A stretch of DNA of 32,000 nt from Candidatus Electronema halotolerans (GCA_942493095.1 OW818675.1:510001-542000); one strand, 5' to 3'; shown: positions 3,316-27,734, counted from the first letter of the stretch. The notes: generated from the sequence alone by a model not told the origin. Numbers and translations are program-made.

Positions 3316-3363
3316 GATTTCGGCTCTCCGATAATTTCCGGGGTTGTAATTCCAGTGCTTTTG

Positions 3364-3549
3364 GTGAATTCAAGTTCCAAGTGCAACTTTTTTTGGTTGC
3401 AAGAAAAGGCAGTTACGGGAGTGTCACAACTTTGCTTTTGTCGCTAACTAAGAGAAAATAATTGAAAATTTACATGAAGTATTCAAAGTGCCAGCCAACC
3501 TATGCTTTTTGGATAACCAAAAAAAGTTGCACTTGCGAGTTGAATCCAC
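3364..3549. repeat. MITE-like element with 35-nt terminal inverted repeats around a 116-nt AT-rich core
   Basis: Arm 3364-3398 is GTGAATTCAAGTTCCAAGTGCAACTTTTTTTGGTT. The reverse complement of 3515-3549 is GTGGATTCAACTCGCAAGTGCAACTTTTTTTGGTT, matching 31 of 35. It sits in a low-GC 373-nt gap inside an otherwise compact gene string. Confidence 0.55.
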
Positions 3550-3688
3550 AACTCACTTTACGGAGTAGTTATCTCAGTAATGCTAACCAATCGGTATCAC
3601 ATAATTTTCGAGACAGCAACACTCAACAGGGGCACCACCCGATTTTGTCAACCACAGAAAAACTCGGAGAGCCATGATTTCTCCTTAC

Positions 3689-5055: not shown

Positions 5056-5131
5056 TCGGATAGATGAACAGCAGATTTCCGCACTCCAAAAATATGATCG
5101 CTCCTCAGCAAAGAACAGGGCTGGAGACGCT
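5056..5131 (-). pseudogene. degenerate copy of the RBS plus first ~15 codons of the ABC ATPase gene
   Basis: Aligns with 1874-1949, including a 26-nt identical core ATGATCGCTCCTCAGCAAAGAACAG. On the minus strand it reads GAGGAGCGATCATA TTT TTG GAG TGC GGA AAT CTG CTG TTC ATC TAT CCG AGG TGA, i.e. (I)FLECGNLLFIYPR*, against MFLQCSNLCFMYPNS in the real gene. The ATG has become ATA and there is an early stop. Confidence 0.5.
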
Positions 5132-5254: not shown

Positions 5255-6256
5255 ATGCTCATCCTCGCCCTTGAAAGTTCCTGCGATGACACGGCGGCGG
5301 CAGTGCTGGCAGACGACCGGCAGGTGCTGGCCAACGTGATCAGCAGTCAGTTTGCCGTGCATGAAAAATACGGCGGCGTGGTTCCTGAACTGGCCTCGCG
5401 CTGCCATATTGAAGCGGTCTGGCCAGTGGCGCAGGAGGCCTTGGACAAGGCCGGAGTCAGCTTGACCGAGATCGGCCTGATTGCCGCCACCCAAGGGCCG
5501 GGACTGGTCGGCTGCCTGCTGGTCGGCTTCACCTTTGCCAAGTCCTTAGCCTTGGTGCGGCAGATACCCTGCGTGGGCGTGGATCATTTAGCCGGACACC
5601 TGTTAGCCATTCTTTTGGAAGATAAGAAACCAGAATTTCCCTACACCGCCTTGGTGGCATCCGGCGGCACCACCTCGCTCTTTGCGGTCAGCAGCCCGAC
5701 TGAATTCCGCCTGCTGGGCCGCACCCGCGACGATGCGGCAGGCGAGGCCTTTGACAAGACTGCCAAACTGCTCGGCTTGGGCTGTCCGGGCGGCCCGGCA
5801 GTGAGCAGGCTGGCTGAACAGGGCCGAGCTGATGCCTTTGCCTTTCCCCGCGCCCTGTCTGACGGCAGCGTGGATTTCAGCTTCAGCGGCCTGAAAACAG
5901 CAGTGGTCAATCAAGTCAACCAGTTCCGCCAAGCACATCAGCCTGTGCCGGTTGCAGACATCTGCGCTTCGTTTGAGCAGGCGGTTGCCGATGTTTTAGT
6001 GGATAAAACCATGCTTGCGGCAAGACGCTGCGGCTGCAGCCGGATTGCCCTTGGCGGCGGCGTGGCAGCCAACCGCAGGCTGAGAAAACTCATGGCCGCC
6101 CGCTGTGCCGAGGCAGGCTTGGCCTGCTTCCTGCCCTCGCCAATTTTTTGCACCGACAACGCAGCCATGATCGGCCTGGCCGGCTTTCATCAGTTTGCCG
6201 CTGGCAGGACGGTCGGCCCGGATGCGGACGCATTTTCCCGTTCGCCGCTCAATTGA
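5255..6256 (+). CDS. tsaD: tRNA N6-adenosine threonylcarbamoyltransferase
   Basis: MLILALESSCDDTAAAV N-terminus, GPGLVGCLLVG, VDHLAGH metal-binding motif, GGVAAN. Length of 333 aa is typical. Confidence 0.95.
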   Translation: MLILALESSCDDTAAAVLADDRQVLANVISSQFAVHEKYGGVVPELASRCHIEAVWPVAQEALDKAGVSLTEIGLIAATQGPGLVGCLLVGFTFAKSLALVRQIPCVGVDHLAGHLLAILLEDKKPEFPYTALVASGGTTSLFAVSSPTEFRLLGRTRDDAAGEAFDKTAKLLGLGCPGGPAVSRLAEQGRADAFAFPRALSDGSVDFSFSGLKTAVVNQVNQFRQAHQPVPVADICASFEQAVADVLVDKTMLAARRCGCSRIALGGGVAANRRLRKLMAARCAEAGLACFLPSPIFCTDNAAMIGLAGFHQFAAGRTVGPDADAFSRSPLN

Positions 6257-6258
6257 CC

Positions 6259-6813
6259 ATGTTCCGCAAGCTGTCCCGTCTGCCACGATACTATCTGCTC
6301 CGCGTCAAGCGGCTGAAGGGCGATCCTGAATATTTAGCCCGTGGCTTTGCCTTTGGCGTGTTCATGGGAGTCCTGCCCTTGGTGCCGGTGCAGACCATCA
6401 TCCTCGTGCCGCTGACCATCCTTTTCCGGGTCAGCACCATTGCCGCCCTGATTGCCGGGACCTTGGTCAGCAATCCCCTGACCTTCATGCCCCAGTATTA
6501 TCTGACCTGGAAGATCGGCAACGCGATCGTGCCGGGCGAAGTCTCGTGGGAGCAGCTCAATGCGGTGCTGCACGAGGTGGCCCGCTTCATGGCTGAGGAA
6601 AGCCTGCTGCGCGGCATTGCTGACAGCCTGACTGCAATCAGCCGACTCGGTCTCAACACAGTTGCTGTTCTGCTCACTGGCGGGGCCATCATCGGCATTC
6701 CTGCCGGTCTGATCAGCTACTGCTTTGCCCGCAAATTCTTTTATGCTGTCCGCGAGCGGCGGCTGAAACGCCAGCGTCTGCTCATAGACAGACCCAGAAA
6801 GCAAGACAACTGA
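6259..6813 (+). CDS. DUF2062 family membrane protein (copy 1)
   Basis: In-frame ATG 3 nt after the tsaD stop. YYLLRVKRLKGDPEYLARGFAFGVFMGVLPLVPVQT followed by TM segments. 184 aa. Confidence 0.8.
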   Translation: MFRKLSRLPRYYLLRVKRLKGDPEYLARGFAFGVFMGVLPLVPVQTIILVPLTILFRVSTIAALIAGTLVSNPLTFMPQYYLTWKIGNAIVPGEVSWEQLNAVLHEVARFMAEESLLRGIADSLTAISRLGLNTVAVLLTGGAIIGIPAGLISYCFARKFFYAVRERRLKRQRLLIDRPRKQDN

Positions 6814-6817
6814 CTGT

Positions 6818-7372
6818 ATGGAAACTGTGCTCCGAACTGCCCTGCGCCTGCCGCGTCTGCCACGGTATTATTTTCTCCGGGTCAAGCGGATGAAAGGCGA
6901 CCCGGAATATTTAGCCCGCAGCTTCGCCTTTGGCGTGTTCATGGGAGTGCTGCCGCTGATGCCGGTGCAGACCATCATTCTGGTTCCGCTGACCATCCTC
7001 CTCCGGGTCAGCACCATCACCGCCATGCTGGCCGGATATGTGGTCAGCAATCCGTTGACCTTTGTCCCCCAGTATTATAGCTGCTGGAAATTAGGCAATG
7101 CCATCCTGCCAAGCTGGGTGAGCTGGGAGCAGATTCACGCCGCCTTGCAGATCATCATCAATCCAGCGCCACAGTCAGACCTGTTCCAGAGCACCATGCA
7201 CGGTTTGACCGCTCTGAGCAAGCTCGGCTTCAAGGCCATAGCCGTGATGGAAACCGGCGGCACGATCATCGGCCTGCCCATCGCCATTGTCAGCTATTTT
7301 CTTGCCCTCAGATTCTTTTTGACCGTCCGGCAGAAGCGGGCGGTCAAGCATCGTTTGGATAATCGCCGCTGA
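6818..7372 (+). CDS. DUF2062 family membrane protein (copy 2, tandem paralogue)
   Basis: YYFLRVKRMKGDPEYLARSFAFGVFMGVLPLMPVQT. Also 184 aa and collinear with copy 1. Confidence 0.8.
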   Translation: METVLRTALRLPRLPRYYFLRVKRMKGDPEYLARSFAFGVFMGVLPLMPVQTIILVPLTILLRVSTITAMLAGYVVSNPLTFVPQYYSCWKLGNAILPSWVSWEQIHAALQIIINPAPQSDLFQSTMHGLTALSKLGFKAIAVMETGGTIIGLPIAIVSYFLALRFFLTVRQKRAVKHRLDNRR

Positions 7373-10535: not shown

Positions 10536-11270
10536 ATGTTCACAAGAAAATTTGCCGTGGTCGTGCCCATGGCCAATGAAGAGCAGGAATTTGAGCTGTT
10601 TGTCAAAGAAATGACAATGGTTCTCGACCGGCTTCCATGCGGCATGGTCTATCTCGTGGTGGACACAGTTTCAAAGGATAAGACCTTGGAATTGTGTCAA
10701 GAGCTGTCTCGGTTTGACAGCAGATTCATCACTGTCTGGGCACCGGAAAACAGAAATGTCGTTGATGCCTATCTTCGCGGGTATCGGGAAGCCCTGCGCG
10801 GCGGATGTGAAATCATCATTGAGATGGATGCCGGACTGTCGCATGACCCACGGGCTTTGCCGATGTTTCTGCGGGTTCTGAATGAAGGCAACGAGTGCGC
10901 CTTTGGCAGCCGCTTCATCAACGGCGGCTCGATTTTCGCTTCCAACTGGCGGCGCACTTTTCTTTCACAGGCCGGAACCCTGCTGGCCAATGTCCTGCTC
11001 GGCACCACGATGCGCGACATGACCTCCGGCTATCAAGGGTTTCATGCCGAAATTGTGAAAAAATTCGTTGATTATCCCTTGCTTTCAACGGCCCATTTTT
11101 ATCAGACTGAACTGCGCTATCTTCTCCGGCACACCCGCTTCGCGGAAATCCCGATCCATTATCGTGCGCCTTCGCCCAGCGTGTCGCAAAAAGCTGTCAG
11201 CAACGCCTTGGCCGTGCTGTGGCATTATTTTCTTAAACGCCTGCGCTTGCAGGCCGTCAGCATTCAGTGA
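10536..11270 (+). CDS. GT2 family polyprenol-phosphate glycosyltransferase (DPM1/ArnC-like)
   Basis: FAVVVPMANEE, VVDTVSKDKT, EMDAGLSHDP (DAD-type motif). I chose the internal ATG 10536 of track ORF 10494..11270 because it starts right after the upstream stop. Confidence 0.8.
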   Translation: MFTRKFAVVVPMANEEQEFELFVKEMTMVLDRLPCGMVYLVVDTVSKDKTLELCQELSRFDSRFITVWAPENRNVVDAYLRGYREALRGGCEIIIEMDAGLSHDPRALPMFLRVLNEGNECAFGSRFINGGSIFASNWRRTFLSQAGTLLANVLLGTTMRDMTSGYQGFHAEIVKKFVDYPLLSTAHFYQTELRYLLRHTRFAEIPIHYRAPSPSVSQKAVSNALAVLWHYFLKRLRLQAVSIQ

Positions 11271-11273
11271 TCA

Positions 11274-12296
11274 GTGATCAATTCCGACCGTCCTGCGCCG
11301 CTCATGCCTCCAACATTTTTAGTGATCACCTCCATCGCCGCCAGCAGCCATCCGGTTCTTCAATGCTATGCCAAAGAAGCTGCGGCACATGCCATGCCAA
11401 TGATCGTGGTTGGCGATTTGAAAAGTCCGGCCCAGTTTGACCTGCTTGGCTGCGATTTTTATTCAGTCGCCCGGCAGCAAGCCATGTCCTCGGAGCTGGC
11501 CAAGCTGCTGCCGTGCAATCATTATGCGCGGAAAAATATAGGCTACCTTGCCGCCATGCGGCAGGGTGCGGAAATCATCGTCGAAACCGACGACGACAAC
11601 CTGCCCGGCAGCGACTTCTGGCAGGAACGGCGGCGGCGGACAACAGCGCATCTGCTGACCGGCAAAGGCTGGGTGAACATCTGCCGGTACTTCACGGACC
11701 GCCACATCTGGCCGCGCGGTTTCGCCCTCGATCATATCCGTGACGACGTGCCCAAGCTTCCTGACGAAGTTGCTGTTGACTGTCCGATTCAGCAAGGTCT
11801 GGCTGATCAGAACCCTGATGTTGATGCCATCTACCGCCTGACCATGCCGCTGCCGGTTGATTTTGCTCCCGGCCCGAATGTGGCGTTGGGCCAAGACAGC
11901 ATCTGTCCGTTCAACAGCCAGAACACCACGTGGTTCAAGGATGCCTTTCCTCTGCTGTATCTGCCCTCGTTTTGCAGCTTCCGAATGACCGACATCTGGC
12001 GTTCGTTCGTGGCCCAGCGGATCGCTTGGGAATGCGGCTGGCATGTCCTTTTCCATCGCAGCACGGTCTGGCAGGAACGCAACGATCACAACCTGCTGCA
12101 TGATTTCAGGGATGAGGTGCCAGGATATCTGAACAACGGCAGGATTGTCGATGAATTGCGGCAACTGCGCTTGCAAGCTGGCGCGGAGGGCATCGCCGAC
12201 AATATGCTCATGTGTTATCGGAAACTTATCGACATGGCCCTCATTGATCACCAAGAATTGCCGCTGGTCGCCGCTTGGCTGAAGGATGTCCTCTGA
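11274..12296 (+). CDS. STELLO/DUF288-like glycosyltransferase
   Basis: VVGDLKSP...NHYARKNIGYLAAMRQGAEIIVETDDDNLP matches my recollection of the DUF288 signature. The start could be GTG 11274 or ATG 11304. Confidence 0.55.
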   Translation: MINSDRPAPLMPPTFLVITSIAASSHPVLQCYAKEAAAHAMPMIVVGDLKSPAQFDLLGCDFYSVARQQAMSSELAKLLPCNHYARKNIGYLAAMRQGAEIIVETDDDNLPGSDFWQERRRRTTAHLLTGKGWVNICRYFTDRHIWPRGFALDHIRDDVPKLPDEVAVDCPIQQGLADQNPDVDAIYRLTMPLPVDFAPGPNVALGQDSICPFNSQNTTWFKDAFPLLYLPSFCSFRMTDIWRSFVAQRIAWECGWHVLFHRSTVWQERNDHNLLHDFRDEVPGYLNNGRIVDELRQLRLQAGAEGIADNMLMCYRKLIDMALIDHQELPLVAAWLKDVL

Positions 12297-12300
12297 CACT

Positions 12301-12513
12301 ATGCGCATCAAGCCCTCGCATCTGCTGTTTCTTCTGACCGCCTTGAACATCACGGGCTGCGCCCCGACGTTGTACGAGATGATGGAGAATGGCCGCACTC
12401 TTGCCTGCGACTCGCTGCACGGACAGGAGCGCGAGGAATGCTTGGCGCAGGCAAGGAAAAGTTACGATGAGTACGAACGGGAACGTGAAGAGGCGATCAG
12501 CAAGGATAAATAA
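12301..12513 (+). CDS. small lipoprotein
   Basis: MRIKPSHLLFLLTALNITGC has a lipobox (ITGC). The tail is charged and helical. This is the internal ATG of track ORF 12286..12513. Confidence 0.6.
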   Translation: MRIKPSHLLFLLTALNITGCAPTLYEMMENGRTLACDSLHGQEREECLAQARKSYDEYEREREEAISKDK

Positions 12514-12546
12514 GAGCTGTGATAACAGGGCGGAATCGCCGCCAGC

Positions 12547-12789
12547 TTACTGCCCGGCCAGCGTTTCATCGCCAAAGATATCGTGCGTGATCTCCTGATA
12601 GGCGGTCAGCAGGCCGGGCTGCTGCTCGGCGGGAATCGGATGCGCAGAGCCGGGCAGAGTGCCCGTCCTACGTGTCAAGACCCGAATGATACCTACACCT
12701 TGAGCGGCAGCACAGCTACGGCCCGCCAGACCCTCTATGACAGCTGCTTGGATTACTGGCAGGAATGGCAGGCTGGGGCAAAGAAATTC
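12547..12789 (-). pseudogene. start-less C-terminal remnant of an alpha/beta-hydrolase-like gene
   Basis: An 80-codon open frame bounded by TGA (12790-12792) and TAA (12547-12549), with no ATG/GTG/TTG giving a plausible start. The tail ...IIRVLTRRTGTLPGSAHPIPAEQQPGLLTAYQEITHDIF... resembles the 'G-x-GH ... E-x-P' C-terminus of alpha/beta hydrolases. Confidence 0.3.
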
Positions 12790-12886
12790 TCAGCCCTGCC
12801 TGCGGTGCTCCATCTGCTTGGTCCAAGCCACCGGCAGCCTTGACTGGCCCGGAGCAAGGAAATCAGCCACCTTTCCCCTCAAGGAC

Positions 12887-13171
12887 TTACTTGTCCATTT
12901 CTATCCATCTGCTCAATATTTCAATGATCTTCTCAGCCTGCCTTGCGCTGGAAATATTGAATTTGGATTTGGGGACATATTGATCATTGCGTTTCTGATA
13001 GCGGCGGATGCTGTATTTCAAGGGGCCATAGTCCTGCTTCTTGCGGTCATACTCTTGATATCGGAACAACAGCGTTGTCCACAGTCCCTTGGTCAGCACC
13101 TCCTTGTCCAGCTCTTTGACCAACAGCAGGCCGTCTTCCTCGTAGTTTATGGTTATCTCATCAATATCCAT
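12887..13171 (-). CDS. hypothetical protein (94 aa) in a lower-GC patch
   Basis: AGGGAG RBS. The sequence is charged with a coherent composition (MDIDEITINYEEDGLLLVKELDKEVL...). I did not recognise a family. Confidence 0.55.
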   Translation of the reverse strand: MDIDEITINYEEDGLLLVKELDKEVLTKGLWTTLLFRYQEYDRKKQDYGPLKYSIRRYQKRNDQYVPKSKFNISSARQAEKIIEILSRWIEMDK

Positions 13172-13315
13172 CCCTGCTCCCTTTCATGACGCTGTTTTCC
13201 ACACGTCTTTTTCATATTCTCAAGAAGGCTGCTGAAGCAGCGGGTCATCAGGCGCATGAATTCTCTCCTGCCTGCAAGCAAGGCCAGCAGCCCCATGAAG
13301 CTGCTGACTGATCAT

Positions 13316-16300
13316 TCATGCCGGAACCTGCTGCTGGAGCAGCCCGTCAATCTCGGCAAATATCTGCCGGTCCGTGAAATGCCTGATCTTGGCCGCGCCG
13401 CTGGGACAATGGCCTGCGCAGCTGCCGCAGCCCTTGCAGACAGCCTCGTTGACCTCGCTGACTCCTTTATAAGCATTAAAGGTGATGGCCCCGTAGGCGC
13501 AGAGTCCGATGCAGGCTTGGCAGCCAATGCAGATATCCGGATCAATTGCGGAAATCATCGGAGAAATCTCAACCGTGCCAGAAGAGCTTAACGACAGGCA
13601 TTCCGCCGCCGCGCCTTTGGCCTGGGCCACGGTGTCGGAAATATCCTTTGGCCCCTGACAGGTTCCAGCTAAGAACACGCCGCTGGAAGGGGTGGAGACC
13701 GGCTCCAGTTTGGGATGCTCCTCTTGGAAAAAGCCGTCTGCTCCAGTGGTGATGCCAAAGGTGCGGGCCACATCGAGAGCATCCTTGCGCGGCTCTATGG
13801 CCATGCAGAGGATGGCCATTTCCACATTGATTTCCACCATCCTGCCGGACAGGGTGTCCTCGGCCCGGACCACCAAGGTCTTGTCAGCCAGCTCGGTGAT
13901 CTGCCCGGCCTTGCCCCGGATCATGCGCACGCCCTCTTCCTGCACCTTTTTGTAGAACTCCTCATACCCCTTGCCAAAACAGCGCATGTCAATATAGAAG
14001 TTATAGACCTGCGTGTCATGGCCGCATTTGTCCTTGAGCAGGTGAGCGAACTTGAGGGCGTACATGCAGCAGACCCGCGAACAGTACTCGTGATGATTCT
14101 TGTCGCGACTGCCGATGCAGTGGAGAATGGCCACGCTCTTCGGAACCTTGGTGAACTTGCCTTCGTCATCCCGAATGAGCAGTTTGCCAGAAGTCGGGCC
14201 GGTGGCATTGCTCAGGCGCTCAAACTCAAAGCTGGTATAGACATTGCGGTGTCTGCCATAGCCGTACTGGGTCATCGGGGTCGGGTCCATCAGATCAAAA
14301 CCAGTGGCTACGATAATTGAGCCAACCTCCAGCTCCAGCGTTTCCGGCTGCATGTCATGATCAATGGCCTTGGGCATGCAGGCATCCACGCACTGATAGC
14401 ATTCGGAACAAACCCCGCATTCAAGGCAGCGTCTGACTTCGCGCTGCACCTGCTCCTCGGTGAGACTGCCGATGATTTCCCGGAAATTGCCGGTCCGCTC
14501 TCGCACCGGCAGCCGGGGCGCACGTTCCCGTTTCACCGGCTTTTTGTCGCCGATATCAGGTTTTGTATAATCCCAAGACCTTGCCCGGCCCTCTTCCAGC
14601 TGCCTGCCGTTGAGGAAGCGGTCAATGCTCTCTGCCGCCTCTTTGCCAGAGGCAACCGCTTCAACCACGGAGCGCGGCCCATGCACAGCATCGCCGCCCG
14701 CAAAAATCCAGCTAATCGGCGACTGAAGGGTCAGTGGATCAACATCCAGACCACCTCGCTTGGTGACGGCAATATTCTCACTGTCGGCAAAATCCAGCTC
14801 CGCGCTCTGGCCAATGGCGACAATGACCGTGTCCGCTTCCAAAGAGATCAGCTCGTTTTCATCGTACTGAGGCCGGAACGCACCGCTGGCATCAAAGACC
14901 GCTGTGCAGCGTTTGAACTCCACCCCGGTGCAGACGTGATCTGCGCCAAGGAACCGCTTTGGTCCCAGCGAGTTGATGATATCGATCTGTTCCTCCAACG
15001 CCTCTTCGACCTCATAGTCCCAAGCAGGCATCTCCTCCCGCTTTTCCAAGCAGATCATAGTGACTTTTGCCCCGCCCAGCCGTTTGGCAGTCAGGGCCAC
15101 ATCAACCGCCACATTGCCGCCGCCAATGACAATGACTTTCCTGCCCACGGTCACGTCTTTGCCCAAGGCCACATTGCGGAGGAAGGCCACGCCCGGCAGA
15201 ATGCCCTGCATCTCCTCGCCCGGCACGCCCAAGGCGCGGCTGCCGTGCAGGCCGGTGCCGATGAACAGGGCCTTGTAGCCGTCCTTGCGCAGACTCGCCG
15301 CAGTCACATCCCTGCCAAAGGCGGTGTTGGTTTTGATGACCACGCCCAGCTTTTCGATCAGGCCGATTTCTTTGGCCAGAGTCTCTCGCGGCAGGCGGTA
15401 TTCCGGGATGCCGACCGCCATCATGCCGCCCTTGATTGGCAGCTTTTCAAAAATCGTGACCTGATAGCCTTTCTGAGCCAGATAATAGGCAGCGGTCAGA
15501 CCGGCTGGGCCTGAGCCGACCACGGCCACTTTTTCCGAGCGTTTCTGCTCAATCTCCGGCATGTACGGATCGGCTGAATCCAGATCAAGGTCAGCAATGT
15601 AGCGGTGCAGATGCTGAATGGCCATAGGCTGCTCGACATCGCCGCGTGTGCAGGCCCCCTCGCAGGGATGGTGGCAGACCCGACCGCAGGTGGCTGGGAA
15701 AGGATGATCTTTCTTAAAAACCCGCACAGCCTCTTTGTACTTGCCCAGCTCCATCAGGGCGATGAAGCCCTGAATGCTGACATGGGCCGGACAGGTCGCC
15801 TTGCAGGGCGCAGGTCCTTTTTTGTCAATGATGTAGGTGATCGGCACTGCTTGGGGAAAGGAGCGGTAGATGGCCTTGCGGTCAGCAATGCCCACATCCC
15901 ACTCATTGGGCCGGGTGATTGGACAGACCTTGGCGCAGTCGCCGCAGCCGGTGCAGATGCCCTCTTTGACGTAGCGGGGCTTTTTATGCACTTTGACCTT
16001 GAAGTTGCCGATAAAGCCCTGCACTTCCTCCACTTCCGCATGGGTGATCAGCTCAATGTTCGGGTGCTGGCCCACGGCAACCATTTTCGGAGTGCCGATG
16101 CAGGCGGCGCAGTCCAAGGTAGGAAAGGTCTTGTCATACTGGAGCATGTGGTTGCCGACTGTGGAGCCTTTTTCGACCAGATAGACCTTGTAGCCCGCCT
16201 TGGCAATGTCCAGCGAAGCCTGCATTCCAGCAATGCCGCCGCCCACCACTAACGTATTTGTGTTGACGGAAAATTTGCTTGGCGTGAGCGGGCTTTGCTT

Positions 16301-22739: not shown

Positions 22740-22961
22740 ATGGCAAAAGCAGATGTGGAAAAATTGCTGGAAGCAGGCGGCAAGGATAAGAAGATCAAGG
22801 CAAAATATGATGTTCCGGCCACCAAGGAAGAGTTTGTCGCCTTGGCAGCGCAGGACGGCTACAACTTCACCGTGGAGGAGCTGGAAGCTGTGCTCAAAGA
22901 ATCCGGCGATGTCTTTGAAAAATACGGCAATCCGCCTAAACGGTCAATTTGGTGGACATAG
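22740..22961 (+). CDS. Nif11-domain small protein / possible Nif11-type leader peptide
   Basis: GGAGG RBS. ADVEKLLEAGGKDKKIKAKY...KEEFVALAAQDGYNFTVEELEAVLKE matches the Nif11 N-terminal domain pattern, followed by the 19-aa tail SGDVFEKYGNPPKRSIWWT. Confidence 0.7.
   Translation: MAKADVEKLLEAGGKDKKIKAKYDVPATKEEFVALAAQDGYNFTVEELEAVLKESGDVFEKYGNPPKRSIWWT
22855..22961 (+). repeat. direct repeat copy A (functional 3' end of the Nif11-like gene)
   Basis: Aligns without gaps to 23891-23997, differing at 10 of 107 nt. Confidence 0.85.
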
Positions 22962-23056: not shown

Positions 23057-23599
23057 TTACATTGGAATGCAGAACAACCTCTGGTCGAACGATTCCTTGC
23101 CGAATATGTACCAAACACTTCCTGCTGCACTCAAGCAGATTTTATGCACATCGAATGACAATGTCAAAGAAAGATCAGCACCCGCCAATCCTACATTTGG
23201 GTGAAAACCAACAGTTACGTTATGACTGTCAAAATTGTATGATGTGCACCATACTTTGGCACCTGCAACAATAAGACACACTTTAAGCTCTGCTTGCCAG
23301 TCTGATGGCGTTCCGCATACCTTTAATTCTCCCCCTATTCCTACGATTTTATACAGAGAAACTTCAAATGGTTGGGTTTTGCAGTTGTCAACAGTTTTCA
23401 GTGCGCCAAGAACAGGCATACGAGCTGCTGCTGCACGAACCATAGGAGCTGCTGTGGCAGGCTCTGCCGCATCTCTGCTAATAGCAGAGAGAATCTGCTC
23501 TTTAAGCTTGTCAACTGGCATGTCAGCATGCGCTGCCATCATCTGCCAATCTTTCTCGCTAACATGAGAAGATACAGCTTGTAATGTATCCTTTTCCAT
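23057..23599 (-). CDS. orphan hypothetical protein (180 aa from the second ATG)
   Basis: GGAGGA lies 7 nt before ATG 23599; the track ORF starts at 23614. Ala-rich helical N-terminal third, beta-rich C-terminal part with 6 Cys. No family recognised. Confidence 0.6.
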   Translation of the reverse strand: MEKDTLQAVSSHVSEKDWQMMAAHADMPVDKLKEQILSAISRDAAEPATAAPMVRAAAARMPVLGALKTVDNCKTQPFEVSLYKIVGIGGELKVCGTPSDWQAELKVCLIVAGAKVWCTSYNFDSHNVTVGFHPNVGLAGADLSLTLSFDVHKICLSAAGSVWYIFGKESFDQRLFCIPM

Positions 23600-23659
23600 T
23601 TTTACATCCTCCATGTAATTTGTTAACTTCCATCCAAGATAGATGGAATAATTTTGTCC

Positions 23660-23890: not shown

Positions 23891-23997
23891 ACGGCTACAA
23901 CTTCACCGTAGAGGAGCTGGAAGCGGTGCTCAAAGAATCCGGCGATGTCTTTGAAAAATACGGCAATCCGCCCAAGCGTTCCATCTGGTGGACCTGA
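23891..23997 (+). pseudogene. start-less second copy of the last 34 codons plus stop of a Nif11-like gene (repeat copy B)
   Basis: Encodes GYNFTVEELEAVLKESGDVFEKYGNPPKRSIWWT*, identical to copy A. The in-frame upstream sequence runs back to TAG at 23851-23853 with no ATG or GTG. Confidence 0.7.
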
Positions 23998-24026: not shown

Positions 24027-25133
24027 TCATCTTGCCGGGATGCTCCGGGATGCCTTGACCGCCGCTGCTGCCGCATCATGAAACCAAGGCCGGAACTGGC
24101 GGATTCTGCTGTTCTCCCGGCTCGGATGAACCCGGTTGCTGAGGAGAATGACAATCAGCTCCTGCTCCGGGTCGATCCAGAATGAAGTGCCGGTGAAGCC
24201 CAGATGACCGACACTTTGGGCGGAGAAATGCCTGCCGCTGCTGGATGAGCCGGGCGTGGGTCTGTCAAAGCCGAGACACCAGGTCTGGCCGGAGAGCTGC
24301 GGCTGCAAGCCTTGGGACAGAAAAGCCGCCCAAGAGCTGGCCACGGCTTCCCCTCTCTCACCCTGCCAATTATCCAAAATCACCCCGCAGAGCTGCAACA
24401 CCCCGCTGACTGTGCCGAACAATCCCGCATGACCGGCAAGGCCGTTTACGAGCCAGCAATGCTCATCATGCACCTCACCCCGCATCATCCTGCCCCGCCA
24501 TGAGCACTGCTCTGTGGCGGCGCAGTTCTGCCTCTGCTCCACGCTGACCTGACAGAGCAGCTCTTTTCCCAGCCCCAGCGGCCCCGCAATCCGCTCCTGA
24601 AAATTGGCGGCCAAATCCTTGTCAGTCAACTCCTCCGCTATCCACCCCAGCAGAATGAAGCCAAGATCGCTGTACAAACAGCGGCTCTCCGGCGCATAGG
24701 CCATTGGCTCGTTGAGAATGAGACGAAGCAACCGCGCCTTGTGGTCCGTTTTTTGCACCGGCGCAAAGGTCTTGAACCACGGCTGATAAGCGGCCAGCCC
24801 GGATGAATGCGAGAGCAGCCTGCGCAGCGTGATCTGCTGTTTGTCCGGCGGCACATCAGGCAGCAGATCAGCCAGCCTGTCTTCCAGCCGGAGCCGCCCT
24901 TCCGCAAAAAAATCGTAGAAAAGCAAGGTGGTCGAAAGGGCCTTGCTCAACGAGGCCAGATCAAACAGGGTGGCCGCCGTCACCAGGGACTGGTCGCGGC
25001 TGTCCATGACTCCGGCCCACGCTGTCCACGTCTGCCGGGCCGGGCCAGTGCCGCAGGCGACTGCCGCTGCCGCGCCGGGAAAAACCTGTTCGGCAAGCCC
25101 CTGCCGCAGGAGCCGCTGTAGTGTCTGGATCAT
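24027..25133 (-). CDS. beta-lactamase-family serine hydrolase (class C / esterase / PBP-like)
   Basis: SLSKAL (SxxK), YSDLGF (YxN-like) and GHLGFTGTSFW (K/H-T/S-G box). Confidence 0.85.
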   Translation of the reverse strand: MIQTLQRLLRQGLAEQVFPGAAAAVACGTGPARQTWTAWAGVMDSRDQSLVTAATLFDLASLSKALSTTLLFYDFFAEGRLRLEDRLADLLPDVPPDKQQITLRRLLSHSSGLAAYQPWFKTFAPVQKTDHKARLLRLILNEPMAYAPESRCLYSDLGFILLGWIAEELTDKDLAANFQERIAGPLGLGKELLCQVSVEQRQNCAATEQCSWRGRMMRGEVHDEHCWLVNGLAGHAGLFGTVSGVLQLCGVILDNWQGERGEAVASSWAAFLSQGLQPQLSGQTWCLGFDRPTPGSSSSGRHFSAQSVGHLGFTGTSFWIDPEQELIVILLSNRVHPSRENSRIRQFRPWFHDAAAAAVKASRSIPAR

Positions 25134-25153
25134 GTTTGAGGGTCATATTTGGG

Positions 25154-25298
25154 TGTTGAAAACTTGTTGAAAACCTGTTGATAACTTGTTGATAACTTCC
25201 TGCCGCCGCTGCCGCCCGCCGAGTTATCAACAAGTTATTAACAAAGTTATCAACACCTCTTTTACTGAAAAACAAGCAGGTTGCGTTAGTTTTCAACA
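25154..25298. repeat. array of eight 11-bp iteron-like units, 4 forward and 4 inverted, around a GC-rich spacer
   Basis: Forward units: TGTTGAAAACT (25154), TGTTGAAAACC (25165), TGTTGATAACT (25176), TGTTGATAACT (25187). The spacer is tcctgccgccgctgccgcccgccg. Inverted units: AGTTATCAACA (25222), AGTTATTAACA (25233), AGTTATCAACA (25245), AGTTTTCAACA (25288). TTATCAACA matches the DnaA-box consensus TTATCCACA at 8 of 9. A tract that is 27/30 A+T follows at 25321-25350. Confidence 0.8.
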
Positions 25299-25363
25299 GG
25301 TGCGGCCCGTCCCAACAACAATAGGTTATATATATACAATATATTTATTAAGGCCGCTCCGAC

Positions 25364-25453
25364 CTGTGGAAAACTGCGTCATAAAAAAAGCCCGTGACCA
25401 AAAAGATCACGGGCTGCGAACATCTTTGAACGAAAAACGGTCAGCGGCTCACC
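25364..25453. repeat. direct repeat R1 (distal copy of the dsrH-like 3' end and terminator region)
   Basis: Aligns to 26458-26549 with a few substitutions and 1-3-nt indels, roughly nine-tenths identical by eye. Confidence 0.75.
25383..25415 (-). terminator. Rho-independent terminator (within R1)
   Basis: On the minus strand: AGCCCGTGA, loop, TCACGGGCT, followed by TTTTTTT. Confidence 0.7.
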
Positions 25454-26457
25454 GTAGCTGAAAAAAAGAGGCGGAAAACTGGAAACTGCGTTGGAGATTC
25501 AAATTATCGTTATATATCAAACAGATTCAGTTGAACAAAACCGGGTTCTTTCAAATTGATTTTTTGCTGGGCAGACTCACCTTCTTTCAAACCGCCTAAT
25601 CTGTTGATATTTTTTACTATTGTCGGGACACAATATTCGGATGCGCTTTCTTTTACTTGGAGGGTATTAAAACGAAGCACTCTCCAGCCTTCTGTTTTCA
25701 AATTATTGTCACGAACATTATCTTTTGCGGCTTGTTGACGATTTGCGTGCCAAAAGTCTCCGTCTGTTTCAACGTCAATCTTTCCTGATTGACAATATAT
25801 TGCAAAATCCAAAGCATAGTGTCTGTTATTAACATTTACAAACTCCTGACGTTCCGCATTTATCTGCAACCGTTTAAATTCTGACCATAAACGGTCTTCA
25901 AGGGGACTTGCATCGAAAAGATCATTTATTTCAACTGCTGTGACAAACTTTTCCCATGTTGTCGAAATGAACACTAATCGTCTGTAACGCCTGCTGAGAA
26001 TAGGTTTTGGTAAACGTTTAAGGGGCGGATCGATAAAAATTTGGTAATACCTTTTCCTGCTTTTTACATTAGCAGGTTCATCAGGAAAAAGCTGCCATCT
26101 GTAAGCCTTTTTGATATCTAATATTTTCGCGTAATAGTTTATCGCATAAGCATCTTTGCCAAAGACTTTCGTCATGTAAAACGCTATAAAGCAAGGAGGC
26201 CAACGCTTTTTCAGCCATTTCTCAACGCTGCTGACAGGAATCCGATACCAATGCTTTTCATTCACAATGGAAAAATCATGCAAATTGTTAATTATTGCCA
26301 CAAGCACTTCGTTATGCAAATCGTTATCCATTACAACAGCTTCAAATGAAGGCCTTCAACAGCAGCCAAGTTAATCCGCGCATCTGCCCCCTCCACGCGA
26401 GAACTTCAGCACTTTCCGAAAAATCATCCAAGGCATGGAATTTCAGACAGTACCAAT
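25454..26457. mobile_element. low-GC single-gene insertion ('cassette 2') between R1 and R2
   Basis: Markedly AT-rich compared with the flanks and carries only the DUF559-type nuclease gene. No recombinase gene is present. Confidence 0.45.
25510..26331 (-). CDS. DUF559 / Vsr-like restriction-endonuclease-fold protein with an uncharacterised N-terminal domain
   Basis: The C-terminus YALDFAIYCQSGKIDVETDGDFWHANRQQAAKDNVRDNNLKTEGWRVLRF is the classic DUF559 pattern (D...E.DG..H....D..R...L...GW.VLRF). The N-terminal ~150 aa (HWYRIPV..., FIAFYMTK..., RRLVFISTTW) is not assigned. Confidence 0.75.
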   Translation of the reverse strand: MDNDLHNEVLVAIINNLHDFSIVNEKHWYRIPVSSVEKWLKKRWPPCFIAFYMTKVFGKDAYAINYYAKILDIKKAYRWQLFPDEPANVKSRKRYYQIFIDPPLKRLPKPILSRRYRRLVFISTTWEKFVTAVEINDLFDASPLEDRLWSEFKRLQINAERQEFVNVNNRHYALDFAIYCQSGKIDVETDGDFWHANRQQAAKDNVRDNNLKTEGWRVLRFNTLQVKESASEYCVPTIVKNINRLGGLKEGESAQQKINLKEPGFVQLNLFDI

Positions 26458-26549
26458 CTGTGAAAAACTGCGCCATGAAAAAAGCCCGTGACCAGAAGAT
26501 CACGGGCTGCGAAACATCTCTGAACGAAAAAGCTCGTCAGCGGCTCACC
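26458..26549. repeat. direct repeat R2 (proximal copy, containing the dsrH-like stop codon and operon terminator)
   Basis: See R1. The repeat ends at GGTGAGCCG, which contains the TGA stop at 26545-26547. Confidence 0.75.
26478..26508 (-). terminator. Rho-independent terminator of the tusA-dsrEFH operon (within R2)
   Basis: On the minus strand: AGCCCGTGA, loop, TCACGGGCT, followed by TTTTTT. Confidence 0.7.
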
Positions 26550-26718
26550 ACCAGCAGACAGTCTTGTCAGCGGCGAAAATCTTGCTCACCAGCTCATCGT
26601 AGTTGGGATTTTCCTCATAGAGACGGAATTCATCCGCCTCCCGGTCACGGTTGAGAATCTCAACCAAGGTCGTGACCACCTCGTTCGGCTCGGAACGATA
26701 CACTTGCAGCATTTTCAT
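26545..26718 (-). CDS. 57-aa DsrH/TusB-like mini-protein
   Basis: Below the ORF-track cut-off. GGAGGAG RBS lies 10 nt upstream. MKMLQVYRSEPNEVVTTLVEIL... and ...NYDELVSKIFAADKTVCWW resemble the N- and C-terminal ends of DsrH/TusB with the middle missing. Alignment is by eye. Confidence 0.45.
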   Translation of the reverse strand: MKMLQVYRSEPNEVVTTLVEILNRDREADEFRLYEENPNYDELVSKIFAADKTVCWW

Positions 26719-26733
26719 GATGATCTTCTCCTC

Positions 26734-27081
26734 CTATTCCGCGCAGGCTGGCGGCGGCTCATTGGTCTGCTTGGACAGGCCGTAGGGAATGATGATATCA
26801 GCCTCGCGCATTCTCTCGCCCAGGGCCTGAAGATCGATTTCAGTCAGAGACACGTCCTCCGGCAGATCATCCGGCGCAGGCGCGCCGCAGGTGAAGACCT
26901 CGCCCTCCATGTCGGCAATCCAAGCGATGTTCTCAGCCATGTAGCTGGAGAACTTCGGAAATTCTCCGTTCAAGATCACCGGGTAGCCGTAGTGGTTCTC
27001 TACGGCCAGCCCCAGTGCCGAACGGATGCCGTCGTTGTACATCCGGTTGGCGATCAGCACATATACTTTCAGCGATTCCAT
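26734..27081 (-). CDS. DsrF/DsrE-like family protein
   Basis: 115 aa. KVYVLIANRMYNDGIRSALGLA fits a DsrE/F fold N-terminus, and its operon position lies between the dsrE-like and dsrH-like genes. Confidence 0.55.
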   Translation of the reverse strand: MESLKVYVLIANRMYNDGIRSALGLAVENHYGYPVILNGEFPKFSSYMAENIAWIADMEGEVFTCGAPAPDDLPEDVSLTEIDLQALGERMREADIIIPYGLSKQTNEPPPACAE

Positions 27082-27094
27082 AGCAGGGGCCTCC

Positions 27095-27427
27095 TTATAA
27101 GACGATGTACTTGCCGCATTCGTCCAGCAGCGCGCCGTGGAATGCCTGAGTTCGCATCTGCTTGGCGGTCAGTCCGGCAGGAATGTCCTTAGCCGAGTCA
27201 TAGCCCTCGCAGGTGTAGCTGTCCGCGCAGATGGCCAAGTTGTCCTCGCCGCACAGCTCGGCCAGCGGCTGAAAGCGGGGGTCCTTGGTCAGATGAACGG
27301 ATTTGTAGGTAAAGAAAATCATCGGCTTTTTGCCAGCTCTTGCCGCAGCTTGGGCAATTCCCACCACATGCGTCATCTGCTGGGGCGAGGTGACAAAAAT
27401 CGCCAGTTTGTCTGGATCAGCAGCCAT
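27095..27427 (-). CDS. DsrE family sulfur-relay protein
   Basis: 110 aa. KLAIFVTSPQQMTHVVGIAQAAARAG, with an ICADSYTCEGY Cys region where DsrE has its active-site Cys. Confidence 0.65.
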   Translation of the reverse strand: MAADPDKLAIFVTSPQQMTHVVGIAQAAARAGKKPMIFFTYKSVHLTKDPRFQPLAELCGEDNLAICADSYTCEGYDSAKDIPAGLTAKQMRTQAFHGALLDECGKYIVL

Positions 27428-27476
27428 TTGGCTTATCCTCCTTGGTTATGGCTTTGCAAAGCGGTTGCGGAAAGAA

Positions 27477-27734
27477 TCAGCCCTTCTGAACAAAAAAGCT
27501 CATGTAGCCGGTCTCTTCCTTCTCGCCCAGATACTCATGACCGGCCCGGGCGCACCAGCCAGGAATGTCGTTGCGGGAACCAGGATCAGTGCCGTCAACC
27601 TGGAGGATTTCTCCAGTATTGATCTTGTTGATTTCCTTTTTGGTTTTCAACAGCGGCATTGGGCAGCTCAAACCTTTCGCATCCAGAACCGCAGCCGGGG
27701 TCAGGCCCTCAGGGGCTTTTTTCACATCGCTCAT
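27477..27734 (-). CDS. tusA: TusA-family sulfurtransferase
   Basis: LDAKGLSCPMPLLKTKK contains the CPxP active-site motif. 85 aa. Confidence 0.9.
   Translation of the reverse strand: MSDVKKAPEGLTPAAVLDAKGLSCPMPLLKTKKEINKINTGEILQVDGTDPGSRNDIPGWCARAGHEYLGEKEETGYMSFFVQKG

Follow-up and report, generated by a model that had tools for sequence, protein, structure and literature searches.

The window analysed here is a stretch of 32,000 nucleotides (OW818675.1:510001-542000; positions are counted from its first letter) that, to judge from its genes, belongs to a relative of the cable bacteria (Desulfobulbaceae). It carries the housekeeping genes tsaD and rRNA adenine dimethylase, which makes the locus chromosomal. 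Our subject is an intergenic region, 25154-25373, in which arrays of repeats similar to DnaA boxes lie next to a very AT-rich tract, and to which we refer as the module. On one side it borders on a gene for a beta-lactamase-fold serine hydrolase (PF00144; 24027..25133, minus strand), its conserved neighbour in cable bacteria and in the non-cable Desulfobulbales alike. On the other side its outer boundary is an intrinsic terminator, a hairpin followed by a T run (25389..25415, minus strand), which duplicates the terminator of a gene for a 57-aa protein. Beyond the terminator come a low-GC gene for a DUF559/Vsr-like endonuclease (25510-26331, minus strand), which we call cassette 2, and the operon that encodes the 57-aa protein, two DsrE-like proteins and TusA (26545-27734, minus strand), followed by a YeeE-type sulfur transporter. 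We argue below that this cable bacterium probably has in the module its chromosomal replication origin (oriC), which rearrangement would have cut off from dnaN.

Eight units of the form TGTTGAWAAC are found within 25154-25298. Four of them run head to tail at 25154, 25165, 25176 and 25187 (TGTTGAAAACT, TGTTGAAAACC and twice TGTTGATAACT), with a step of exactly 11 bp, as had been described in the original prediction, made from the bare sequence of the window. The other four are inverted (AGTTATCAACA at 25222, AGTTATTAACA at 25233, AGTTATCAACA again at 25245 and AGTTTTCAACA at 25288). A repeat finder recovered the same families (D2 and D5) together with a 22-nt inverted repeat (I1, 95% complementary). 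The palindromic 4+4 layout first proposed is accurate as to the eight units and the two opposed blocks, but the right block is better described as 3+1, with a slip of 1 nt at the third unit and a gap of 32 nt before the fourth. Two smaller details had to be corrected: the 24-nt spacer between the blocks (TCCTGCCGCCGCTGCCGCCCGCCG, 25198..25221), taken to be GC-only, is free of A and 21/24 G+C but includes three T, and the AAAAC/GTTTT variant, thought to mark the outermost unit of each side, is found on the left in both outer units.

By its sequence the unit is a variant of the DnaA box with C6 changed to A, the phase of 11 bp being that of a 9-mer plus a gap of 2 bp. The distal array (25154..25197, plus strand) then consists of four DnaA-box-like 9-mers, complementary to TTWTCAACA and separated by 2 bp (TGTTGAAAA at 25154 and 25165, TGTTGATAA at 25176 and 25187). 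The proximal array (25222..25255, plus strand) has the opposite orientation, with TTATCAACA at 25224-25232, TTATTAACA at 25235-25243 and TTATCAACA at 25247-25255, in steps of 11 and 12 nt. A spacer of 32 nt (25256..25287), different in sequence from one relative to another, separates it from the box TTTTCAACA (25290..25298, plus strand), which reads TGTTGAAAA on the other strand, adjoins the candidate unwinding element and is invariant in 8/8 aligned relatives. The last box, TGTGGAAAA (25365..25373, plus strand), lies beyond the AT-rich tract and is complementary to the consensus DnaA box TTTTCCACA. The module has, in all, eight boxes of the type TTWTCAACA or TTATTAACA, one or two mismatches away from TTATCCACA, and a ninth that is TTTTCCACA; the likeness to DnaA boxes noticed at first sight holds up at this level for the TTWTCAACA core. 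The ninth box is present in L121, L123 and L127 (L numbers denote the loci compared), degenerate in Electronema and absent in L133, and it falls within the duplicated flank of cassette 2.

This concentration of boxes is exceptional within the window. TGTTGAWAAC, with up to one mismatch, was found 16 times in the 32 kb against an expectation of 2.8, a count that none of 100 shuffled sequences reached (0/100), and nine of the 16 matches are inside 25154-25374 (eight in 25154-25298, the ninth being TGTGGAAAAC at 25365). Measured against TTATCCACA, five 9-mers with at most one mismatch are found in 25176-25373, plus four with two mismatches, while the twelve with at most one mismatch in the rest of the window are all singly scattered. 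Among the features by which an oriC is recognized is such a cluster, with several DnaA boxes in a few hundred bp that differ from TTATCCACA at one or two positions at most. The variant box itself has precedents: TTATCAACA is marked as one of the two DnaA boxes in the oligonucleotide 2Box3D, used in electrophoretic mobility shift assays with the DnaA of Thermoanaerobacter tengcongensis, which at high temperature needs two neighbouring boxes for binding (PMC1888806), and in the linear chromosome of Cyanothece it is among the boxes predicted for oriC (PMC4674748).

A second such feature, an AT-rich unwinding element adjoining the boxes, is also there. The candidate element (25321..25351) is A+T in 27 of 30 positions, as originally noted, has an AT-rich counterpart at the same place in all relatives and (as 25317-25352) ties with one site in a second cassette (cassette 1, see below) for the most AT-rich 30-mer of the 32 kb. 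Between it and the invariant box lie a G+C-rich spacer of 13 nt (ggtgcggcccgtc, 25299..25311; 11-13 nt in all relatives) and a trinucleotide repeat, 5'-TATTGTTGTTGG-3' on the minus strand (25312..25323; also written CCAACAACAATA), with the position and the polarity of DnaA-trios. The basal unwinding system described in the literature consists of a box, a spacer of up to 16 bp whose length peaks at 10-13 bp, three or more NAN trios of the consensus 3'-GAT-5', and AT-rich DNA, and has been predicted in 85% of origins (PMC8287927). The order of box, spacer, repeat and AT-rich DNA in the module appears to match this published arrangement. On the hydrolase-sense strand the window reads 5'-[AT-rich]-TATTGTTGTTGG-gacgggccgcacc-TGTTGAAAA-3' and Electronema TGTTATTATTAG-gcttgttaatt-TGTTGAAAA. 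Compared with the trio rule, which asks for at least (NAN)x3 on the correct strand and no further than 16 bp from a box, the window repeat fits in position, strand, 3-nt period and spacer (13 bp); its units, taken 3'->5' and going away from the box, are GGT TGT TGT TAT, with a middle A in one unit only. Electronema and L133 have GAT TAT TAT TGT in the orthologous place, in conformity with the rule, and the authors of the survey suspected that there might be deviant trios lacking the middle adenine (PMC8287927). Their table, which is based on origins predicted by DoriC, has for Desulfotalea psychrophila the entry TATTATTATTATTAT-AGCCGTTCATA-TGTGTATAA, also given as 3'-AATATGTGT-ATACTTGCCGA-TATTATTATTATTAT-5' (PMC8287927 supplement), and this sequence visibly resembles the module of the window, including an AGCCGT spacer that we also see in L131.

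The comparison with relatives shows what is kept in this region and what is not. Homologs of the hydrolase in metagenomes reach 86-98% identity and the proteins of Candidatus Electronema 65-67%. Two loci (L121 and L122) have the same sequence as the window. In the others, with hydrolase identities of 88% (L123 and L127), 71% (L133), 70% (L132), 69% (L131) and 66% (L135), as in the closed genome of Ca. Electronema aureum (OW818638.1, represented by L124-126, with the module at ~924.5 kb of 2.94 Mb), the module is found directly upstream of the hydrolase gene, over a range of 65-88% protein identity. An alignment of eight sequences shows invariant columns in the TGTTGA.AA box by the AT-rich tract, in the GTT.TCAACA boxes on the hydrolase side and in a T-x-TT-x-TT-x-TT repeat. 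The spacers vary, including the G+C-rich one, whose 24-nt form is restricted to the genus-level group of the window (L123, L127) and is not found in Ca. Electronema, where one or two left-arm boxes flank a spacer that is not GC-rich and the individual boxes are nevertheless conserved. Invariant boxes amid variable spacers are what one would expect of protein-binding sites, and not of a conserved hairpin. The array is also retained in relatives that lack cassette 2 (L124, L131, L133 and L135), a comparison that the original prediction had itself recommended. We made some further observations at these loci. L127 has a different outer flank, with a short broken open reading frame (ORF; ~1670-1745) similar to the start of a transposase gene adjoining the module; in L124 of Electronema a gene for a DDE transposase (5804-6397) lies 3.5 kb from it; the contig L132 ends (position 1) inside the module; and in L133 the next gene after the hydrolase is dnaE, for the alpha subunit of DNA polymerase III (11193-16052), with an intein that contains a LAGLIDADG endonuclease domain.

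Further evidence comes from the non-cable Desulfobulbales. Both Desulfobulbus propionicus (CP002364, at ~3.782 of 3.85 Mb) and strain B35 have the gene order gyrA<gyrB<dnaN<[spacer 260-300 nt]>hydrolase, with the operon for the 57-aa protein, DsrE and TusA and with yeeE downstream, and a scan with the hydrolase alignment found more than 20 further metagenome loci with the dnaN-hydrolase arrangement (dnaN-type), at 38-57% hydrolase identity. Every locus of at least 65% hydrolase identity with a visible upstream neighbour has instead the cable-type arrangement, that is, tusA operon, spacer and hydrolase. Searches with the DnaN proteins of D. propionicus and of L134, the closest dnaN-linked relative, gave among the 120 matches listed for each only non-cable Desulfobulbales, at 72% identity or more. 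Many of the contigs in these two lists agree in length with contigs found through the hydrolase, in keeping with the two arrangements. The spacers of both types have in common the element TTGTT[GA]TT, present in 18/30 of them and always on the hydrolase-sense strand (background, 0.043 per kb), either 26-40 nt from the ATG of dnaN or ~110-150 nt after the 57-aa gene (~1,290 nt in L123, which bears the cassette). Equivalents of the repeat-spacer-box module were recognized in the other cable-type loci and in four dnaN-type loci, with a distance from repeat to box of 11-13 nt in every one of them; the pattern (TRT)n-TR[GAT], 3-18 nt, box is confined to the module in each such locus and matches once in the 32 kb of the window. 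Since gene order and TTGTT[GA]TT element are shared, the spacer of the window is a descendant of the dnaN-upstream spacer, the classic position of oriC. Cable bacteria have separated the module from dnaN by rearrangement and have gained boxes, as the number of perfect boxes per spacer is 0-2 in the dnaN-linked type and 4-8 in the cable type, a difference that argues against the decay of a relic.

The arrangement of the array points in the same direction when it is followed beyond the Desulfobulbales. Species-representative genomes were scanned for two units at 11-bp phase (TGTTGAWAACNTGTTGAWAAC), which gave at least 120 loci in many phyla; all ORFs of 120 loci were clustered, the largest clusters annotated and the neighbours within 8 kb counted. 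The recurrent neighbours were DnaA (26 of the 120 loci), YidC (15), DnaN (14), RecF (13), GyrB (13), RnpA (12), MnmE (10), Jag (9) and GyrA (8), and 35/120 loci had at least one such origin-type neighbour, whereas we would expect a random 8-kb piece to have a neighbourhood of this kind in well under 1-2% of cases. Arrays beside dnaA and dnaN occur in Clostridia, Bacteroidota, Bdellovibrionota and others. The origin-linked ones sit in dnaA-dnaN or dnaN-upstream spacers, where perfect TGTGGATAAC boxes are mixed in among them; a G+C-rich spacer comes next, then CTA/TAG repeats (TAGTAGTAG) and AT-rich DNA (in L107, for example, GTTATCCACA-aaaaaccccgagc-CTACTACTACTAT-attatatatat), and the convergent +++--- layout known from the window is common in these loci. 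In six origins of Bdellovibrionota type (L010, L038, L079, L083, L104 and L006) the array that faces the TAG repeats consists of perfect TGTGGATAAC boxes, and the opposed one combines the C6-to-A variant GTTATCAACA with repeats of CAATTAACAA; as the opposed arrays differ in sequence, the two arrays of one origin use different box types. The loci of Desulfobacterales picked up by the scan (L039, L065 and L058) turned out on annotation to be unrelated contexts. Another group of loci, L024, L027, L030, L033, L042 and L043 (Kiritimatiellae RGIG7486), L025, L035 and L066 (Ca. Spyradenecus), and L092 and L106, belongs to a repeat of ~620 nt with many copies per genome, in which TGTTGAAAAC is followed by GTTATCAACAaGTTATCAACA and, further on, GTTATCAACA by AGTAGTAG. 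It looks like an origin-like set of DnaA boxes carried on a multicopy element; no Rfam family and no obvious ORF accounts for the repeat.

The anatomy of the module, its conservation, its orthology to the dnaN-upstream spacer and the association of the motif arrangement with oriC in other phyla can be regarded as established, and on these grounds we believe that 25154-25373 is probably the oriC of this chromosome. DnaA binding, unwinding and firing are what we infer from them. In such an origin DnaA would occupy the nine 9-mers. The two oppositely oriented arrays, with their gaps of 2 bp, would place successive DnaA molecules on one face of the helix and would favour oligomers, and the array nearer to the AT-rich tract would terminate in the invariant box at 25290-25298. 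From this box a DnaA filament could extend over the 13-bp G+C-rich spacer onto the repeat at 25312-25323 and open the AT-rich tract (25321-25351) for the loading of the helicase. Because 20 nt separate the distal array from the start codon of the hydrolase, its occupancy by DnaA probably also alters the transcription of this gene.

Several observations weigh against an origin at this place. There is no dnaA, dnaN or other origin marker in the window, nor within 10 kb of the module in the cable-bacterium loci (annotation of the 32 kb, searched for dnaA, dnaN, gyrB, rep and par, bears out the statement of the original prediction that dnaA, rep and par are missing), and adjacency to such genes is seen in the orthologous non-cable spacer, which abuts dnaN-gyrB-gyrA, but not in cable bacteria. 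Proximity to marker genes is common for oriC without being obligatory, and E. coli does without it. A better candidate might exist elsewhere, the comparison of cable bacteria having covered the surroundings of the module. The local GC skew, calculated over flanks of 3-25 kb at 17 loci, agrees only weakly with an origin: the right flank exceeds the left, by small amounts, in 6/7 cable-type loci (three of them copies of one Ca. Electronema aureum locus) and in 6/10 dnaN-type loci, and within the window the cumulative skew is lowest near 28 kb. Three of the four units of the window repeat have a middle G where the strict DnaA-trio rule demands A. The motif also occurs in the ~620-nt multicopy repeat of two Kiritimatiellae genomes, so that such arrays are not exclusive to origins. 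Finally, the origin listed for D. propionicus, among those predicted by DoriC, is at 3,694,620 and has a weak module score of 6 (PMC8287927 supplement), ~87 kb from the dnaN-hydrolase spacer (~3.782 Mb); this prediction bypasses the orthologous spacer, yet falls in the same 2-3% of the chromosome. Full-text searches of a collection of papers found none in which the origin of a cable bacterium is mapped.

The suggestion in the original prediction that DnaA boxes beside an AT-rich tract mark either an origin or a DnaA-titrating or regulated site has gained comparative support, from the presence of the motif at oriC in many phyla, the conservation of the module and its dnaN-upstream ortholog, but origin and non-origin site are not separated by these data. 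The strongest rival is a DnaA site of the second kind, a remnant of the old dnaN-linked origin that now serves as an operator of the hydrolase or as a titrating or reactivating locus in the manner of datA and DARS, with the real origin elsewhere, for instance by dnaA; we consider it unlikely, if worth keeping in mind. It would account for the position of the boxes, 20 nt from the ATG of the hydrolase (25133, minus strand), a distance first read off the sequence and found to be correct, and 5-7 nt from the last box to the ATG in relatives, which implies that the promoter or the 5' end of the hydrolase must overlap the array. A scan for sigma-70 promoters over 25050-25550 found none. The loss of the dnaN linkage in cable bacteria, the distant listed origin of D. 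propionicus, the degenerate trios of the window and the indecisive local skew would all fit as well. However, neither a titration site nor an operator needs a fixed unit of box, 11-13 bp and repeat, or an AT-rich tract, and both have been kept from Electronema to the window. A datA- or DARS-like site would be a cluster of boxes without an unwinding module; here the boxes are present, but the conserved box-spacer-repeat-AT-rich module is too. The number of boxes, moreover, rose in cable bacteria and did not decay, and every chromosome needs an origin, the module being the sole origin-like one in the ~150 kb of cable-bacterium sequence examined.

Much less probable is that some protein besides DnaA uses the repeats as its operator or centromere, such as a partition protein or repressor of the ParR or ribbon-helix-helix (RHH) kind acting on 11-bp iterons, or that they are an array of sites for IHF. 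Two opposed blocks in 11-bp phase do recall parC of plasmid R1, as had been pointed out at the outset, but neither a par, rep or RHH gene nor another gene for a small DNA-binding protein is found by the array or elsewhere in the window, nor does a partition or RHH gene flank the array in the relatives, and this part of the original prediction has gained no support. The same holds for an iteron origin of a plasmid: no Rep family matches in the window, a plasmid collection searched with the array gave no match and the locus is chromosomal and syntenic. Arrays beside dnaA and dnaN across phyla fit a universal protein like DnaA better than a lineage-specific repressor. As for IHF, its consensus (pattern WATCAANNNNTTR) has two exact matches (TATCAACAAGTTA) at junctions of inner units, 25182-25194 (minus strand) and 25225-25237 (plus strand), symmetric about the G+C-rich spacer, and three in the window against 0.7 expected. 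The two arise where T-variant boxes abut, the outer A-variant units making none, and they follow automatically from two abutting TTATCAACA boxes.

Very improbable, finally, is a miniature mobile element, with the TGT...ACA termini (25154, 25298) as transposon ends, or a bare palindrome that forms a structure and binds no protein: a stretch of 153 nt does fold strongly as single-stranded DNA (-32.9 kcal/mol, z = -6.8), the units read TGT...ACA like many transposon ends, gene cassettes adjoin the array and the Kiritimatiellae repeat with the same boxes is multicopy, but the hairpin is not conserved in relatives while the individual boxes are, and the array occurs once in the window and keeps its syntenic site in every relative, up to a protein divergence of 35%, with no target-site duplication or transposase. 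The hairpin form of the idea was rejected on the first of these grounds.

Some features are specific to this lineage, namely boxes that are all of the C6-to-A type save one flanking TTTTCCACA, trios with a central G, and the insertion of a cassette at the edge. The two copies of a diverged direct repeat, ~95 nt in length (~25361-25455 and 26455-26551, ~80% identity), enclose cassette 2. What is duplicated in them is the final codons of the 57-aa gene with its terminator, and also a DnaA-like box, TGTGRAAAAC. The cassette is found also in the 88% relative L123, and not in Electronema, L131, L133 or L135. Cassette 1 was inserted in the same style: an ORF of 185 aa (23057-23614) without a Pfam family, in DNA of ~41% G+C, is flanked by a direct repeat of 103 nt (22855-22957 and 23891-23993, 93% identity), in which a 73-aa gene (22740-22961) has its 3' end duplicated. 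A bolder proposal, that the cable bacteria have an origin free of both dnaA and dnaN, made of C6-to-A boxes only and using in this lineage a deviant trio with G for A, and that the edge of this origin is a preferred landing site for 1-kb cassettes that duplicate a terminator and a DnaA box, is offered as speculation that we consider unlikely as a whole.

If the module is the origin, the consequences would be practical as well as evolutionary. To our knowledge, there is no pure culture of a cable bacterium and there are no genetic tools, and an oriC fragment of ~220 bp would provide a reference for growth rates from metagenome coverage, for the analysis of replichores and rearrangements in these heavily shuffled genomes and for replicating vectors. 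It would also be a natural case of an origin that left dnaN while gaining DnaA boxes, and its trio variant could be used to test the unwinding model; a G-centred trio, suspected but not found by the authors of the unwinding survey, would imply an altered recognition of single-stranded DNA by DnaA. If the module is instead a DnaA site that is not an origin, it would represent a datA-like element derived from an old origin, which is informative too, if less useful.

The remaining features of the window do not touch on the module. Two tandem DUF2062 genes (6148-6813 and 6818-7372) have a 300-nt repeat in common (6271-6570 and 6848-7147, 78% identity), a direct repeat of 69 nt (1876-1944 and 5058-5126, 81% identity) is found at two gene ends 3.2 kb apart, and the spacer 3316-3688 includes an inverted repeat of 35 nt (3364-3398 and 3515-3549, 89% complementary). 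Rfam at the gathering threshold gave no match in the window, and a tRNA search of it found none.

Among known systems, the centromere R1 parC with its protein ParR and the iteron origins of plasmids also have short, phased direct repeats in two blocks. The window differs from them in having neither parM/parR nor rep, in being chromosomal and syntenic and in that its repeat is a variant of the DnaA box common to the origins of many phyla. The datA and DARS loci of E. coli, where clustered DnaA boxes at a distance from dnaA bind several molecules of DnaA, are specific to enterobacteria and have no trio-like repeat or unwinding element. The window is like them in having its cluster away from dnaA and unlike them in keeping both repeat and unwinding element.

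The oriC of E. coli (R1-R5M-tau2-I1-I2 / C3-C2-I3-C1-R4) is closer. It has two clusters of four low-affinity sites 2 bp apart (PMC6070618), and the title of a work cited there (Rozgaja 2011) speaks of two oppositely oriented arrays. The window shares with it the clusters of four 9-mers with 2-bp gaps, the opposed arrays, the AT-rich unwinding element (in the window a candidate) and a position unlinked to dnaA (PMC6070618, PMC8287927). The sites differ, being in the window boxes of a single type (C6 to A) with one or two mismatches and in E. coli sites with two or more mismatches, anchored by R boxes, and the gidA/mioC context is absent from the window. With the basal unwinding system of Bacillus subtilis (boxes 6/7 together with DnaA-trios, in oriC), our module has in common the succession of box, G+C-rich spacer of 11-13 bp, 3-nt repeat and AT-rich DNA, and also the polarity, as its repeat is carried by the strand that shows the box as TGTNGAWAA; in Electronema the orthologous repeat is GAT TAT TAT. 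It departs from B. subtilis in that a single box abuts the repeat and that in the window the required middle A is found in one unit only. The form that we consider ancestral in the Desulfobulbales is most like the origins linked to dnaN and not to dnaA, such as those of Cyanothece 51142's circular chromosome (PMC4674748) and of the Bdellovibrionota-type loci L038 and L079, where canonical TAG repeats are found in dnaN-upstream origins with dnaA elsewhere. The cable bacteria differ from these in that their module has lost dnaN as well and is now found between the tusA/dsrE-like operon and the hydrolase.

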